A stretch of DNA of 64,000 bases from a phage. Position 1 is the stretch's first letter. Every line of letters begins with the position of its first letter. The translations under genes were made by a program, and so were the position numbers. The notes under the pieces were generated by a model. That model saw nothing but the letters and a program-made list of their open reading frames with translations, did not search any database and had not been told where the DNA came from. Where the stretch lies: sequence record PZ452581.1; one strand, 5' to 3'. Positions 1 through 45,654 of the stretch are shown one piece after another.

Positions 1-1
1 T

Positions 2-622
2 AATTCTTATAATAAAGATACATTAATAAACTGGATAAAAGCACAAGGGTCCACGCCTGTTGTTATTACTATTACAGGAAATATTGTTTCTCAATCTACT
101 GGTGTTCCATGCTTAGATTTTCCTAGCTCATTAACTAATGCATACGTGACACTTAATATCAATTCAGGCGTGCATGTTTGGGGCCGTGGCGGGAATGGCG
201 GAAATAACTCTGCCGGTGGAGCAGGAGGAACTGCAATAAATAATGGAATTGGAACTAGATTGCGTATTAACAACAATGGTGTTATCGCAGGAGGCGGTGG
301 CGGCGGTGGAGGTGGATATTATTCTCCTTTTTCACAAATGAAATTGACTTTTGGCGGTGGCGGCGGTCGTCCATTTGGTGCTGCTGGCGGGTCTGCTAAT
401 ATGGAACAGGGCGCTACTGCTGGTACTATTTCTGCACCTGGTAAAGGGTCTGTCAATGGTATCTATAATGGCGGGAATGGCGGTGATGCTGGTGCCGCAG
501 GTGGTAAATGTAATATTCGTGGGCAAGGATCAGAATATAACGGCGGTGCGGCTGGTAAAGCTGTTACTGGTAATGCTCCAACTTGGACTAAAGTTGGTAC
601 AATATACGGTTCAAGAGTATAA
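2..622 (+). CDS. 38: Receptor-recognising adhesin gp38, T2/T6 type; 5'-truncated by window start
   Basis: Frame open from base 2 to stop at 620-622. Translation has glycine-rich motifs (WGRGGNGGNN, GGGGGGGGGYY, GGGGGRPFGAAGG) separated by variable segments. Sits directly upstream of holin t. Confidence 0.75.
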   Translation, partial: NSYNKDTLINWIKAQGSTPVVITITGNIVSQSTGVPCLDFPSSLTNAYVTLNINSGVHVWGRGGNGGNNSAGGAGGTAINNGIGTRLRINNNGVIAGGGGGGGGGYYSPFSQMKLTFGGGGGRPFGAAGGSANMEQGATAGTISAPGKGSVNGIYNGGNGGDAGAAGGKCNIRGQGSEYNGGAAGKAVTGNAPTWTKVGTIYGSRV

Positions 623-653
623 TTTTGAATAAATATCCTTAAAAGGAGGGTCT

Positions 654-1310
654 ATGGCAGCACCTAGAATATCATTTTCGCCCTCTGATATTCTATTTGG
701 TGTTCTAGATCGCTTGTTCAAAGATAATGCTACCGGGAAGGTTCTTGCTTCCCGAGTAGCTGTCGTAATTCTTTTGTTTATGATGGCGATTGTTTGGTAT
801 AGGGGAGATAGTTTCTTTGAGTACTATAAGCAATCAAAGTATGAAACATACAGTGAAATTATTGAAAAGGAAAGAAATGCACGCTTTGAATCTGTCGCCC
901 TGGAACAACTCCAGATAGTTCATATATCATCTGAGGCAGACTTTAGTGCGGTGTATTCTTTCCGCCCTAAAAACTTAAACTATTTTGTTGATATTATAGC
1001 ATACGAAGGAAGATTACCTTCAACAATAACTGAAAAATCACTTGGAGGATATCCTGTTGATAAAACTATGGATGAATATACAGTTCATTTAAATGGACGT
1101 CATTATTATTCCAACTCAAAATTTGCTTTTTTACCAACTAAAAAGCCTACTCCCGAAATAAACTACATGTACAGTTGTCCATATTTTAATTTGGATAATA
1201 TCTATGCTGGAACGATAACCATGTACTGGTATAGAAATGATCATATAAGTAATGACCGCCTTGAATCAATATGTGCTCAGGCGGCCAGAATATTAGGAAG
1301 GGCTAAATAA
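654..1310 (+). CDS. t: Holin T
   Basis: 218 aa, N-terminal MAAPRISFSPSDILFGVLDRLFKDNATGKVLASRVAVVILLF matches T4 holin as recalled. AAGGAGG Shine-Dalgarno 5 nt upstream. Confidence 0.95.
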   Translation: MAAPRISFSPSDILFGVLDRLFKDNATGKVLASRVAVVILLFMMAIVWYRGDSFFEYYKQSKYETYSEIIEKERNARFESVALEQLQIVHISSEADFSAVYSFRPKNLNYFVDIIAYEGRLPSTITEKSLGGYPVDKTMDEYTVHLNGRHYYSNSKFAFLPTKKPTPEINYMYSCPYFNLDNIYAGTITMYWYRNDHISNDRLESICAQAARILGRAK

Positions 1311-1583
1311 TTATTTGTTTGTATACATCTCTAGATATCGATATACACTCTCAAAACCCTCATTGAATTCGTCGATGAGGGTTTTCTTATCTTCTTGAGT
1401 TAATTCAGAAACAATTTTACGGAATGAATTCTGATTTAATTTTCTACCTTCATGCGTTACTCCAATCTCATTCAGAAATGCAATAAAATTAGCACGATTC
1501 TCAACAATATCTTCTCTGGAAAATTTAATCAAAATAGACGCAACAGTAATAATTTCACGAACTGTATCAATATTTTTATTCAT
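1311..1583 (-). CDS. asiA: Anti-sigma70 factor AsiA
   Basis: 90 aa, MNKNIDTVREIITVASILIKFSREDIVENRANFIAFLNEIGVTHEG matches T4 AsiA; conserved position after t. Confidence 0.92.
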   Translation of the reverse strand: MNKNIDTVREIITVASILIKFSREDIVENRANFIAFLNEIGVTHEGRKLNQNSFRKIVSELTQEDKKTLIDEFNEGFESVYRYLEMYTNK

Positions 1584-3402: not shown

Positions 3403-4038
3403 TCACAGTTCAGATGCTACAGTGATTACAGCTTCAATGTTTTCTGCCGAGCGTTTAATGTCAAGATACACATTACCGTTTTTAGCGATTTTACAAGACA
3501 TTCCGATATCAGTAAATTTCTGAATATGATGTTCCATCATTTTGTATCCAAAAATTCGCATGTTTCCATTGTTGTTAATTTCAAAATTGCGAATTCCGTG
3601 AGTGCGTTTTTCTAAAATAGCAAGATAATTACTACGATAAGTTTCAACCTTTTTAAGAACAAATCCATTTTCATCTAAAAGTTTTAACATGAAGTCTTTA
3701 TCTTCTTCCATATCAGAAGTAATCTCACGAGCTTTACGAGTAGCACGTTTTTTCAGCAGTTCCGGAGCGTTTTCCTGTGCGTATAAAGTTGCTGCGTTTG
3801 AAATAATATCTTGCGCTTCGCCTGTGATGATTAATCCATCACCTGATTTCTCTACCAGGCCTTTTTTAATCAATACCCCAATATTACTATTAACTACTGC
3901 GTTACCTAAATCTGGATGCACCTCACGAACTTCTGCAGCTGTAATGAAATCTTTCTTAGCAATGGTAATTAAAATCGCAGCAGTTTTTTCATTCAGAACA
4001 TCGTTAGAAGCTTTGATGATGTAAGTTACTTTAGACAT
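3403..4038 (-). CDS. motA: Middle-transcription activator MotA
   Basis: 211 aa, MSKVTYIIKASNDVLNEKTAAILITIAKKDFITAAEVREVHPDLGNAVVNSNIGVLIKKGLVEKSGDGLIITGEAQD matches T4 MotA. Confidence 0.95.
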   Translation of the reverse strand: MSKVTYIIKASNDVLNEKTAAILITIAKKDFITAAEVREVHPDLGNAVVNSNIGVLIKKGLVEKSGDGLIITGEAQDIISNAATLYAQENAPELLKKRATRKAREITSDMEEDKDFMLKLLDENGFVLKKVETYRSNYLAILEKRTHGIRNFEINNNGNMRIFGYKMMEHHIQKFTDIGMSCKIAKNGNVYLDIKRSAENIEAVITVASEL

Positions 4039-8341: not shown

Positions 8342-8427
8342 TAAACTTTCCTTTTACGTCGGAATCACTGATATTCATACAATAAATCATAGTTTCCCTT
8401 AAAACAAAAGGGCCGAAGCCCCTTATT

Positions 8428-24654: not shown

Positions 24655-24692
24655 GAAAAAAGGAACCCCGAAGGATTCCTTAAATTTTAACC
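24655..24692 (-). terminator. Hairpin terminator downstream of soc
   Basis: Minus-strand AAGGAAUCC-UUCG-GGGUUCCUU hairpin followed by a T-run. Confidence 0.6.
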
Positions 24693-24944
24693 ACCAATAC
24701 CTGGAGTTGGCGTAACAGTCCAAAGACCTTCATTAGCAGTGATCCATTCAGTACGCTGATTTTCTTCATATACTGTAGAATATGCTGCTTTTTCAGAAGG
24801 GAATGTCTGATAATGAGCACCAGAAATTTTGTGAACATCAGAATAAAGAGGGAAAGCTACAGAAATTTCTTTACCCTGAATTGTACCACCATCAACTGCT
24901 TGGTCAAATGTTTTGATATTAACATAACCGCGAGTACTAGCCAT
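24687..24944 (-). CDS. soc: Small outer capsid protein Soc
   Basis: 85 aa, MASTRGYVNIKTF...EISVAFPLYSDVHKISGAHYQTFPSEKAAYSTVYEENQRTEW matches T4 Soc. Confidence 0.9.
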   Translation of the reverse strand: MASTRGYVNIKTFDQAVDGGTIQGKEISVAFPLYSDVHKISGAHYQTFPSEKAAYSTVYEENQRTEWITANEGLWTVTPTPGIGG

Positions 24945-24960: not shown

Positions 24961-25170
24961 TTAAATTACATGATTATTTATAATAAATTCTCGCGGAACG
25001 TTAAAATATCCGATTTTAGTTAATATAACAACATCACCATTAATAATTACCGGAGAATAATCTTCTGAAGCATTAAATTTCCAATGGGCTCTAATATTAT
25101 ATCCATCAGAACCAAATGCTCGACTAGCCGGTCTCCCGGCTTTTTGCCATGCATAAAAATCAAATTTCAT
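24961..25170 (-). CDS. Hypothetical protein
   Basis: 69-aa ORF between soc and 56, where T4 carries segF. Confidence 0.45.
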   Translation of the reverse strand: MKFDFYAWQKAGRPASRAFGSDGYNIRAHWKFNASEDYSPVIINGDVVILTKIGYFNVPREFIINNHVI

Positions 25171-37722: not shown

Positions 37723-37800
37723 AGATATTCCTTAGTTTATAGCCCGAGTTATTAGGCTCTTGATATATTATACTCCAAATAAGGGGCCGAAGCCCCTTGC

Positions 37801-38169
37801 TTAATTACCAATCGTATATTTAGGAACGAGTTTCCATTCGTGTTTTTGTTTAAAAGAAATAACTCGGAAGTTATTGGTTAAATCTTTCATAAAAGTTCTT
37901 TGACCAGGAACGATTTCAATCAGCCCCCAATCTTCTAACAGCCACGCAATCGAATCACGACGAACTTCATCTTCTTCTGTCATTTCAACCTGACGGCCAT
38001 CCATACGAAGCATTTCTTTAAAATGAACGATATAGTATAGTCCTTTTTTCTGAAGAATGTGGCAGGACTGATACAGAACTTTATCTTTATTATTAGCAAT
38101 TCCCATACGAGTCAAAGTTTCTTTTACTTTCAGAAAATCTTCAGGTTTTTTAAGAGTAATTTCAATCAT
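37801..38169 (-). CDS. regA: Translational repressor RegA
   Basis: 122 aa, MIEITLKKPEDFLKVKETLTRMGIANNKDKVLYQSCHILQKKGLYYIVHFKEM matches T4 RegA. Confidence 0.93.
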   Translation of the reverse strand: MIEITLKKPEDFLKVKETLTRMGIANNKDKVLYQSCHILQKKGLYYIVHFKEMLRMDGRQVEMTEEDEVRRDSIAWLLEDWGLIEIVPGQRTFMKDLTNNFRVISFKQKHEWKLVPKYTIGN

Positions 38170-43259: not shown

Positions 43260-44275
43260 TGTGTTGCCTCTACATATAACTGATTTGCATATTGAATAAG
43301 TGCTTCGCGGTCAGAATCAGTGATGTCTGGAATTGCATTAATGTATTCTTCCATCAACGTCTGAAGAGATTGAACTTCAACTTCTTCACTATCATCTGAC
43401 TCGACAGAGTTATCAATCTTTGACACAACTCGTAATGAATGCACAACTTTTTCTAGTTCAGATTCGAACTTCGTTAGATTTTTGTCTACTTCAGTTACTA
43501 TAACACGCACTGATAGATTTGTAAAATCTTTATAGTCAATTTTTCCCTTAAATGGATACTGAATTCGACGATGCCAGGTAGTGTTGTTTGGAATAAATTC
43601 CATTCGTTCTGTTTCTGTATCAAACATCCAGAACCCACGAGGGTCATTCTCGTCACCTGCAGTTAGTGTCCATGGTGTCCCAATATATCTGACGTTAGCA
43701 GCCTCAGAGATAGTATGGAAGTGACCAGACCACACCTCTTTATAAGTCTTAAGGAAATCAGGTTCAAGACCGTGAGATTTCATTCCTTTATAAAAATAAA
43801 ATCCATTCAGTTCCCAGTGACCAACACAAAAAGAAGCAGATGAAGTTTTTATGTGTTCAAGAATTTCGCCAGTATTTTCTTCACACATCCAAGGAATTAA
43901 ATCAATCAAACATCCGTCAAAATCTACTGTAGTAGGCTTATCATATACTTTAACATTAGGATATTTAGCCAAAAGCTCAGTAGAAGCATTTGGGGTTAAA
44001 GTATTTTTAAAGTGCATATCATGGTTTCCTACAACAGTATGTAGGGTAATACCAGCATCATCAAGCATTTGAACTATTTCACGGGCGAACTCCATAGTTT
44101 TATGCGTGATTGCTTTTCGCACATCAAAAATATCGCCGTATTGAATCCATGTAGTAATTCCATTTTTCTTAGAATATTCTATTGCTTGTTTAATTCCATC
44201 CAACTGAATGGATTGAACCCACTCATCATCGGCTTTAACACCTAAATGCCAATCACCTAAATTTAAAATTTTCAT
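43256..44275 (-). CDS. 47: Recombination endonuclease subunit gp47 (Mre11/SbcD-like)
   Basis: 339 aa; phosphoesterase motifs (GDWHLG, GDIFD, GNHD, GHWE/GHFH). Confidence 0.95.
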   Translation of the reverse strand: MKILNLGDWHLGVKADDEWVQSIQLDGIKQAIEYSKKNGITTWIQYGDIFDVRKAITHKTMEFAREIVQMLDDAGITLHTVVGNHDMHFKNTLTPNASTELLAKYPNVKVYDKPTTVDFDGCLIDLIPWMCEENTGEILEHIKTSSASFCVGHWELNGFYFYKGMKSHGLEPDFLKTYKEVWSGHFHTISEAANVRYIGTPWTLTAGDENDPRGFWMFDTETERMEFIPNNTTWHRRIQYPFKGKIDYKDFTNLSVRVIVTEVDKNLTKFESELEKVVHSLRVVSKIDNSVESDDSEEVEVQSLQTLMEEYINAIPDITDSDREALIQYANQLYVEATQ

Positions 44276-44451: not shown

Positions 44452-45654
44452 TTATTTTGTAATAATGTCAAACTGCTCTTTAAAGCAGAAGCTTGAATCT
44501 TGATGCTGATACAAAAATTCATAAGCTTTTTCACGTTCACGGTCATAAAGAGCTCGGTCAGATGACAGTTCTTTAATACGTTCAAATGTTGATTCCATGT
44601 CATTTTCATCAAACCAAACGATACCGCTATCATGAGAAATTAACGGAGTATTATCAACACGGAATTTTAAATTTTCGCCAGTAGATTTCCAAAATACTGG
44701 AATTGTTCCACATGCACCAAGCTCGAGATGAGTATATTCTAAAGAACGTTGTAGATATTTTTTATCTAATTTACTCAGCTGATAACCAAATCCGGATTTA
44801 CTCATGCGTTCAAGCATTTCGCTATTTACATAACGGTCAAGAATTTGCGTTGGCAAATTAGGAGCAATTTTAATTTGGTCTACTTGATGAAGACGATAAT
44901 ACTCGTATGGAATTCCTTTTTCTTTAATAGGAATGAACGCTGGAGAACGTTCCAGACCTTCCATAATAGTACTTAGTCCTGCAGGTTTAAGATGTTTTTC
45001 ATGAAAATCAAACATCTGATAAAAACCTTTCCATGTAGTAGTACGACCAATCCAACGGTTGATATTCATGTTAATTTCAGAAACATCTTTCCAGTAGGTT
45101 GATCGAACCTTCGCAATATCCATAGGAGGCTGAAAGTTGTATACGGTCGGTGCTTCTTCAACATCATCAAACAGTGAAACAGTTTCTGGATACCATTCTT
45201 TCATTAAAACTTTATTAAAATCACCATTATCAGAATGGCTAAAAATAACATCAGCTCGACGAACAGTTTCTTCTAATCCCAAATTTCGGCGCAAAGAAAG
45301 AGAAGAATGGTCATGTTGATAAACTACAACACGAACCGAAGGTTTAATGTTATCAATAATTTTTTTATAGTTATTAATAGTGTCTTCTTCGACTGAAGTA
45401 GCAGGAACTGAATTGATAATTAGAATATCACAATCATTTACCAGCTTAAGTGTTTTATCGTATTCTTTTGCCAATAAAACCGGAATTGAAAATGACTTAT
45501 AATCATGCGCGCAATTACGAGTAAATGATTTATCTTTAGCATAAACCAAAGTTACTTCATGACCATTTTTAATAAACCAATCACGTTGCTCAAGAGAAAA
45601 TTTAGTTACGCCACAACCTTCAAGACCTCGAGCCATAAAAATGCATACTTTCAT
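44452..45654 (-). CDS. agt: Alpha-glucosyltransferase (hmC DNA alpha-glucosylation)
   Basis: 400 aa, MKVCIFMARGLEGCGVTKFSLEQRDWFIKNGHEVTLVYAKDKSF matches T4 alpha-gt. Confidence 0.9.
   Translation of the reverse strand: MKVCIFMARGLEGCGVTKFSLEQRDWFIKNGHEVTLVYAKDKSFTRNCAHDYKSFSIPVLLAKEYDKTLKLVNDCDILIINSVPATSVEEDTINNYKKIIDNIKPSVRVVVYQHDHSSLSLRRNLGLEETVRRADVIFSHSDNGDFNKVLMKEWYPETVSLFDDVEEAPTVYNFQPPMDIAKVRSTYWKDVSEINMNINRWIGRTTTWKGFYQMFDFHEKHLKPAGLSTIMEGLERSPAFIPIKEKGIPYEYYRLHQVDQIKIAPNLPTQILDRYVNSEMLERMSKSGFGYQLSKLDKKYLQRSLEYTHLELGACGTIPVFWKSTGENLKFRVDNTPLISHDSGIVWFDENDMESTFERIKELSSDRALYDREREKAYEFLYQHQDSSFCFKEQFDIITK

Follow-up and report, generated by a model that had tools for sequence, protein, structure and literature searches.

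The first 622 nucleotides of the window, by which we mean the whole 64-kb stretch of DNA that was analysed, carry the 3' four-fifths of gene 38, and the sequence comparisons reported here confirm the product of positions 2-622 as the last 206 residues of a T2/T6-type gp38 adhesin. The gene is a mosaic, in which a T6-like cassette reaching from the variable segment HVS2 to HVS4 sits in a scaffold of the Bas43/Bas45 lineage, and the outer membrane protein most relevant to the phage is predicted to be Tsx, which is very probably its primary receptor. This prediction draws on the identity of the fragment to the adhesins of phages JK38 and Bas39, on its T6-type segments HVS2-4 and on published work that backs receptor prediction from the HVSs.

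The frame at positions 2-622 of the plus strand is the sole open one in this region. It comprises 206 codons without internal stops and ends with a TAA at 620-622; each of the other five frames over 1-622 contains 4-20 stops. The translated fragment matches the Pfam family PF05268 ('Phage tail fibre adhesin Gp38') with 232 bits (gathering cut-off 25, E=9.6e-69), residues 1-206 being aligned with profile positions 10-218 of 218. The crystal structure of S16 gp38 (6F45_D) was found with E=1e-36 and 203/206 residues aligned, and homology to gp38 from PP01 (9V85, E=6e-29) extends over essentially the whole fragment. The T2-type architecture that the earlier note had read from the sequence is borne out by the Pfam score and by the homology to both structures. 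That reading holds for the family and the overall design, but not for the specificity loops, which are of the T6 type and match those of T2 (HVS2-4) at 11%.

The fragment is conspicuously rich in glycine. The three glycine blocks listed in the earlier note were all recovered exactly, namely GGGGGGGGG (fragment residues 97-105, nt 290-316), GGGGGRPFGAAGG (residues 118-130, nt 353-391) and GGNGGDAGAAGG (residues 157-168, nt 470-505). They are GRM2, GRM3 and GRM4 of a total of five and not three in all, as two further conserved glycine motifs, GRGGNGG (nt 182-202) and GGAAGKAVTG (nt 542-571), complete the classical set of five GRMs. Glycine accounts for 47 of the 130 residues between positions 61 and 190 (36%), whereas the background value, taken from the window's long open segments, is 5.1% (binomial P = 1e-27). 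Outside the gene 38 fragment, no run of at least four glycines occurs in any of the six frames of the entire 64 kb, and the number of Gly9 runs expected by chance is 3e-7. The G+C content rises to 51% across the glycine-rich stretch vs 34.5% for the window. The pattern is real and lies far beyond chance.

For the delimitation of individual segments, the fragment was aligned with 13 full-length gp38 proteins (alignment A1; 14 proteins, 10 distinct C-terminal sequences). These were the proteins from vB_Eco_BGP (BGP), from T6, Bas35, Bas36, Bas37, Bas39, Bas43 and JK38, all of which use Tsx, from Bas45 and FL20 (OmpA), from T2 (FadL) and from Bas38 and Bas46 (OmpF). Receptors were taken from the BASEL table (PMC8594841), Lutz et al. 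(PMC12032242), a 2026 RB-TnSeq preprint and, for T2 and T6, Maffei et al. The boundaries between GRMs and HVSs are operational, as they were derived from the alignment following the scheme of Trojet; the S16 structure contains 10 polyglycine-II (PGII) helices, some of which fall within HVS1 and HVS3 as drawn here. The features are as follows:

2..622, plus strand: gene 38, 3' part (codons 56-261 and TAA); only open frame, Pfam GP38, PDB 6F45_D, 100% protein identity to BGP/JK38/Bas39
2..181, plus strand: residues 1-60, which by comparison with S16 and PP01 gp38 probably cover the linker's end and the initial rungs of the central beta-helix
182..202, plus strand: GRM1, GRGGNGG; 6/7 columns invariant in alignment A1
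203..289, plus strand: HVS1, NNSAGGAGGTAINNGIGTRLRINNNGVIA; includes the equivalent of PP01 loop A and putative beta-helix strands (9V85 alignment; loop definitions of PMC12892980)
290..316, plus strand: GRM2 (Gly9); by homology the predicted long central polyglycine-II helix
317..352, plus strand: HVS2, YYSPFSQMKLTF; equivalent of PP01 loop B, T6-type allele
353..391, plus strand: GRM3, GGGGGRPFGAAGG; GGGGGRPFG invariant in 14/14 sequences
392..469, plus strand: HVS3, SANMEQGATAGTISAPGKGSVNGIYN; its ends are the equivalents of PP01 loops C and D, T6-type allele
470..505, plus strand: GRM4, GGNGGDAGAAGG; from alignment A1
506..541, plus strand: HVS4, KCNIRGQGSEYN; equivalent of PP01 loop E, T6-type allele
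542..571, plus strand: GRM5, GGAAGKAVTG; 7/10 columns invariant
572..619, plus strand: conserved C-terminal strand(s), probable closure of the beta-helix, NAPTWTKVGTIYGSRV; P193, W195, G199, I201, Y202 and G203 invariant
654..1310, plus strand: holin gene t; Pfam Phage_holin_T PF11031, E=1.1e-116
1311-1583, minus strand: asiA
3403-4038, minus strand: motA

Five GRMs in fixed order with HVSs between them correspond to the architecture described by Trojet et al. (2011, PMC3157838), with five GRMs alternating with four HVSs. The alternation of glycine blocks with variable segments, which had been proposed from the single sequence, is also evident from the conservation of columns in A1: the mean entropy per column amounts to 0.17-0.61 bits in the GRMs vs 1.27-1.69 bits in HVS2, HVS3 and HVS4, which contain 0-1 invariant columns. 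The highest value of all segments, 1.69 bits, is that of HVS2.

Residues 1-60 align with residues 57-~115 of 6F45_D. GRM2 aligns with helix 3 of the S16 protein, given as '151-GGGGGGGG-158' (PMC6851490). Via the alignment with 9V85, the five loops of the PP01 adhesin were placed on the fragment by homology only:

Loop A: fragment residues 67-72, last residue of GRM1 and start of HVS1
Loop B: fragment residues 107-116, HVS2
Loop C: fragment residues 130-135, start of HVS3
Loop D: fragment residues 151-155, end of HVS3
Loop E: fragment residues 171-178, HVS4

In S16, a gp38 monomer caps the gp37 trimer by means of its N-terminal helices; its GRMs are packed as polyglycine-II helices in a lattice of three layers, with the HVSs exposed as distal loops (PMC6851490). 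For the PP01 adhesin, cross-links were seen between its loops D and E and loops 5 and 7 of OmpC, and specificity is controlled by loop E (PMC12892980). A beta-helix combined with a polyglycine-II sandwich is thus the very likely fold of the protein studied here, as judged from homology. Single-sequence AlphaFold2 prediction for the 206-residue fragment yielded an unusable model (mean pLDDT 30.3, pTM 0.18); polyglycine sandwiches are hard to predict (PMC6851490).

The name of the gene calls for a comparison with phage T4, whose gp38 is a folding chaperone that is released after assembly, whereas the T2-type gp38 remains on the fibre tip (PMC6851490; PMC12892980). According to one conceivable reading, the fragment would likewise belong to an assembly chaperone outside the virion and its glycine runs would be incidental. 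Gene number and map position between gene 37 and t are the same in both cases, and several database records label close homologues as 'tail assembly protein' or 'assembly catalyst'. However, BLASTP between T4 gp38 and the fragment returned E=14 with 5/23 identities, no GP38 Pfam match was found in T4 gp38 as compared with 232 bits here, and the fragment shows strong homology to crystallised fibre-tip adhesins from two phages. The chaperone labels are to be seen as annotation carried over from T4. The T4 RefSeq annotation (NC_000866) itself calls the 'gp38' of the T2 subfamily unrelated. The two proteins are not related, in keeping with the earlier note, which had described the T4 protein as a chaperone without such glycine motifs, and the check for T4-type homology was negative. 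The probability that the fragment belongs to a T4-type chaperone is vanishingly small, and this candidate was rejected on the basis of the Pfam, structure homology and BLASTP results.

The surroundings of the adhesin gene are those of a Tequatrovirus. The order gp38, t, asiA, arn, motA is canonical for the genus, and the adjacency of gene 38 and t is the same in all relatives. Gene 37 adjoins gene 38 in all relatives fetched and lies outside the window in the genome studied here. About 15 deposited Tequatrovirus genomes match the first 1400 nt at 98-99% identity, the window is colinear with genomes of this genus at 95-99% nucleotide identity, and its first 48.5 kb are colinear with FriedrichMiescher (Bas39) at 95-97%. 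Neither tRNA genes (tRNA scan) nor Rfam matches were found in the window, and a scan of positions 1-1700 for sigma-70 promoters and terminators returned sites not above those in shuffled sequences, save one long hairpin after t.

The description of the gene as partial holds: codons 56-261 lie inside the window and the gene of the relatives encodes 261 amino acids. In the closest relative, BGP (99.1% nucleotide identity), gene 38 is an intact open reading frame of 261 codons directly after gene 37, and the fragment corresponds to residues 56-261 of its product. The N-terminal 55 residues, i.e., the gp37-attachment domain, are located upstream of the window. In the gp38 proteins from BGP, JK38 and Bas39 this part matches Gp38_N (PF21721, E=8e-18) and carries W9, W22 and W37; three N-terminal tryptophans are the residues that plug S16 gp38 into the gp37 trimer (PMC6851490). 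The 55 upstream codons of an intact adhesin would be expected to match MAIVGVPGWIGESAVNETGQRWMDAAMRAVRVSVPGWMSSMAGQSKEVYYSIGAS.

As the window opens at codon 56, with start codon and attachment domain outside it, the copy in this genome might be a truncated or inactivated remnant. We consider this extremely improbable, since the 206 visible codons are intact, the edge of the window is arbitrary and the relatives have the full open reading frame at 98-99% nucleotide identity. Moreover, all nucleotide differences in 1-622, 12 with respect to Bas39, 5 with respect to JK38 and 4 with respect to BGP, are silent, which indicates purifying selection on this allele.

With gene 38 taken as encoding an adhesin, the question of its receptor can be addressed. 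The fragment is identical in 206/206 residues to the gp38 proteins from JK38 and Bas39, i.e., there are no substitutions relative to receptor-tested adhesins over the residues seen. Bas39 is listed as Tsx-dependent in the BASEL table (PMC8594841, suppl. file 5), and RB-TnSeq identified Tsx as the primary and Kdo as the secondary receptor of JK38 (bioRxiv 10.64898/2026.04.02.716166). The earlier note had stated that the variable segments predict the receptor, and indeed HVS2-4 of the fragment group with those of the Tsx binders T6 and Bas35-37, as seen from the identities to adhesins with different receptors:

T6, Bas35-37 (Tsx): HVS2 10-11/12, HVS3 20-21/26, HVS4 10-11/12; HVS2-4 80-86%
Bas45, FL20 (OmpA): HVS2 2-3/12, HVS3 17-18/30, HVS4 7/12; HVS2-4 48-52%
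Bas38, Bas46 (OmpF): HVS2 1/12, HVS3 5/26, HVS4 2/15; HVS2-4 15%
T2 (FadL): HVS2 0/12, HVS3 5/26, HVS4 1/15; HVS2-4 11% (reference PV958097, a laboratory mutant strain and the one T2 record retrieved; the comparison is coarse, which is immaterial at such divergence)

HVS2-4 of T6 and Bas35-37 align to the fragment without insertions or deletions. HVS1, with 19/29 identities, is the one HVS that is not T6-like, the other three being of the T6 type. Nearly all gp38 proteins that recognise Tsx have one common set of HVSs (Trojet et al. 2011, PMC3157838), the receptor can be predicted from a gp38 phylogeny that leaves out the N-terminus (Lutz et al. 2025, PMC12032242), and an exchange of gp38 from HVS2 onward is reported to suffice for a switch from Tsx to OmpA (bioRxiv 10.64898/2026.04.02.716166). 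HVS2-4 of the Tsx binder Bas43 are only 42% identical to those of the fragment; likeness of the HVSs is thus enough, though not required, for a common receptor. What doubt there is about Tsx stems from the prediction being drawn from relatives, from the N-terminus lying outside the window and from the fact that specificity within the family shifts with one to three residues: a single exchange, Q206L, can flip it from OmpF to OmpW (bioRxiv 10.64898/2026.04.02.716166), and three residues can broaden it, as in PST vs T6 (PMC3157838).

A different picture emerges when the protein is compared over its entire visible length. Identity then amounts to 81-85% for Bas45, which uses OmpA, and to 81-82% for Bas43, as compared with 67% for T6. 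Residues 1-96 are 91-96% identical to Bas45/Bas43 and ~50% identical to T6. Within this part, residues 1-60 agree in 57-59/60 positions with Bas45 and Bas43 and in only 20-22/60 with T6 and Bas35-37, and HVS1 agrees in 23-26/29 positions with Bas45 and Bas43. The last 16 residues are again fully identical to those of Bas45 and Bas43 (16/16; T6, 11/16). Sliding identity along the nucleotide sequence gave the same three-part pattern:

nt 1-270: Bas43 82-100%, Bas45 67-93%; T6 37-68%
nt 271-540: Bas43/Bas45 47-77%; T6 and Bas36 75-92%
nt 541-622: Bas43/Bas45 92-98%; T6 (and Bas36) 70-77%

This mosaic structure is consistent with an origin by recombination within the conserved DNA of the glycine motifs; modular exchange is the model that has been proposed for the gp38 family, and mosaicism is a known property of its members (PMC3157838). 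Because the gene is a mosaic, the HVSs alone are informative on the receptor, and identity over the whole protein would mislead toward Bas45 and OmpA. Binding of OmpA, as in Bas45, the nearest non-identical neighbour with a measured receptor among the adhesins compared, is in fact suggested by the overall identity values, by the 91% identity of the scaffold preceding GRM2 to Bas45 and by the location of type 1 OmpA adhesins near Tsx adhesins in trees (Lutz et al., PMC12032242). We nevertheless regard it as very improbable: Bas39 and JK38, which carry the identical protein, depend on Tsx, the fragment has neither the 5-residue deletion in HVS2 nor the 4-residue insertion in HVS3 that mark the OmpA types, its HVS2-4 are just 48-52% identical to theirs, and an exchange from HVS2 onward is just what turns a Tsx adhesin into one for OmpA (bioRxiv 10.64898/2026.04.02.716166). 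An assignment to OmpA derived from whole-protein identity to Bas45 was dropped after the analysis of individual segments and in view of the identical adhesins of Tsx-dependent phages.

The adhesin could also bind Tsx and, through its non-T6 scaffold and HVS1/loop A, engage an auxiliary receptor (OmpA or LPS, like PST), in which case loss of tsx would lower and not abolish infection on some hosts. PST, which differs from T6 by three HVS residues, uses both Tsx and OmpA, and a contribution of the N-terminus has been suggested (Trojet et al., PMC3157838); residual plating without the primary receptor occurs in some T-even phages (BASEL), and HVS1/loop A are of the Bas45/Bas43 and not of the T6 type here. 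On the other hand, BASEL and RB-TnSeq each give a single porin, Tsx, for the identical adhesin, and nothing points to a second protein receptor. An auxiliary receptor of this kind is accordingly judged quite improbable. There is a somewhat larger, still slim chance that the hybrid scaffold together with loop A/HVS1 makes the phage use either a subset of Tsx variants other than that used by T6 or a weak second receptor; if so, the wild E. coli and Shigella strains that it infects would not be those predicted from the label 'Tsx binder'.

The product of gene 38 would act as an adhesin that sits, as a monomer, on the gp37 trimer at the tip of every long tail fibre, its N-terminal attachment domain of three helices, with one tryptophan per helix, plugging into gp37. 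The part visible here would fold into the central beta-helix plus a polyglycine-II sandwich, in which the GRMs pack as PGII helices into a rigid lattice, while the HVSs between them would provide the distal, receptor-touching loops. HVS2-4 probably contact Tsx, and most likely the adhesin binds the extracellular loops of this nucleoside channel in E. coli and Shigella. Once several fibres have bound reversibly, the short tail fibres (gp12) would lock onto the LPS core, and contraction of the sheath would be triggered. Reversible binding of long fibres preceding a step that involves gp12 and LPS is the general model for T-even phages (Maffei et al.).

Work published between 1987 and 2018 described the gp38 adhesins as a family, together with their architecture, crystal structure and role in host range. 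The family, the GRM/HVS architecture, the fold, the role in host range and also the present allele are thus already known. In a tblastn search, 24 phage records contained an adhesin at least 99% identical to the fragment and 405 records a homologue; 24 or more deposited phage genomes hence encode the same protein (at least 99%), and for two of them the receptor has been measured. For annotation, the result means that the phage is a Tequatrovirus of the T2/T6 type with Tsx as its most likely primary receptor, and it calls for caution in receptor prediction, as the signal resides only in the HVS2-4 loops and not in similarity of the whole protein.

Among known systems, the closest are JK38 (MK962755), Bas39 (MZ501066), vB_Eco_BGP, JK1, slur02 and about 20 others, whose gp38 is 100% or at least 99% identical over the 206 residues. 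The neighbouring genes are the same, the DNA is 98-99% identical and all nucleotide changes within gene 38 are silent. The rest of the genome is ~95-96% identical to these relatives, which makes the phage a different isolate or lineage. T6 gp38, the classical Tsx adhesin, to which those of Bas35, Bas36, Bas37 and the T6-like RB-series phages can be added, has the same five GRMs and HVS2-4 of equal length; its scaffold, HVS1 and C-terminal strand are only ~50-69% identical. The reverse applies to Bas45 PaulHMueller (OmpA) and Bas43 TadeuszReichstein (Tsx), which have the scaffold in common with the fragment (91-96%) and differ in HVS2-4 (42-52%, with insertions and deletions in Bas45). T2 gp38 (FadL/OmpF) belongs to the same family and has the same architecture, with 66% identity over residues 1-96, but it diverges in HVS2-4 and has another receptor. 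The gp38 proteins from S16 (6F45) and PP01 (9V85) are homologous throughout and provide the structural model of a beta-helix with a PGII sandwich and distal loops A-E; both bind OmpC, and no sequence relationship exists between their HVS loops and those of the fragment. T4 gp38, finally, has only the gene name and the map position between gene 37 and t in common with the fragment; it lacks glycine motifs as well as sequence similarity and is not a component of the virion (PMC6851490; PMC12892980).

Across the 64 kb of the window, just one copy of the T4 late-promoter consensus TATAAATA is present, as compared to 10.3 ± 3.3 copies expected from shuffles, and it lies at soc, the sole late gene within the surrounding block of early genes, which is why the motif looks depleted over the early region. 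The start codon of soc is located 31-38 nt downstream of the motif:

24975-24982, minus strand: single copy of the late-promoter motif TATAAATA, consensus match
24687-24944, minus strand: soc, gene for the small outer capsid protein

A candidate for the termination of the late transcript covering the tail-fibre genes and the holin gene t is found 43 nt past the stop codon of t, where a hairpin is situated within the coding sequence of the convergently oriented asiA gene and may act as a terminator:

1353-1385, plus strand: hairpin made up of a 14-bp stem and trailed by a T-rich stretch, in the 3'-terminal part of asiA (1311-1583, minus strand)

Neither tRNA genes (ARAGORN) nor Rfam families scoring above the gathering score were detected in window 1-64000.

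The window is colinear with the genome of the related phage FriedrichMiescher (Bas39) apart from segments that it lacks, the largest of which, about 595 bp, is a putative homing endonuclease gene residing between gene 47 and the alpha-glucosyltransferase gene in Bas39:

44881-45476 of the Bas39 locus (L015): about 595 bp absent from the window, junction at window position ~44269-44275

Two further Bas39 segments have no counterpart, one of about 208 bp near window position 8351-8355 and one of about 238 bp near window position 37800-37808, the latter comprising a small ORF between the genes for DNA polymerase and regA.

In many deposited genomes, the adhesin matching window 1-622 is named 'tail assembly protein' or 'distal long tail fiber assembly catalyst', and the T6 record MH550421 uses this kind of name as well. 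These assembly-type labels are inherited from the unrelated T4 gp38.

T-even phages that target OmpC bind this receptor via the tip of gp37. For AdolfPortmann (Bas44), whose receptor is OmpC according to the BASEL collection (PMC8594841), homology to the window starts only at position 629, just past the gp38 stop codon. Taken together, the onset of Bas44 homology and OmpC binding via the gp37 tip point to gene 38 as the exchanged cassette, with a predicted 3' exchange boundary in the spacer between 38 and t (window 623-629).
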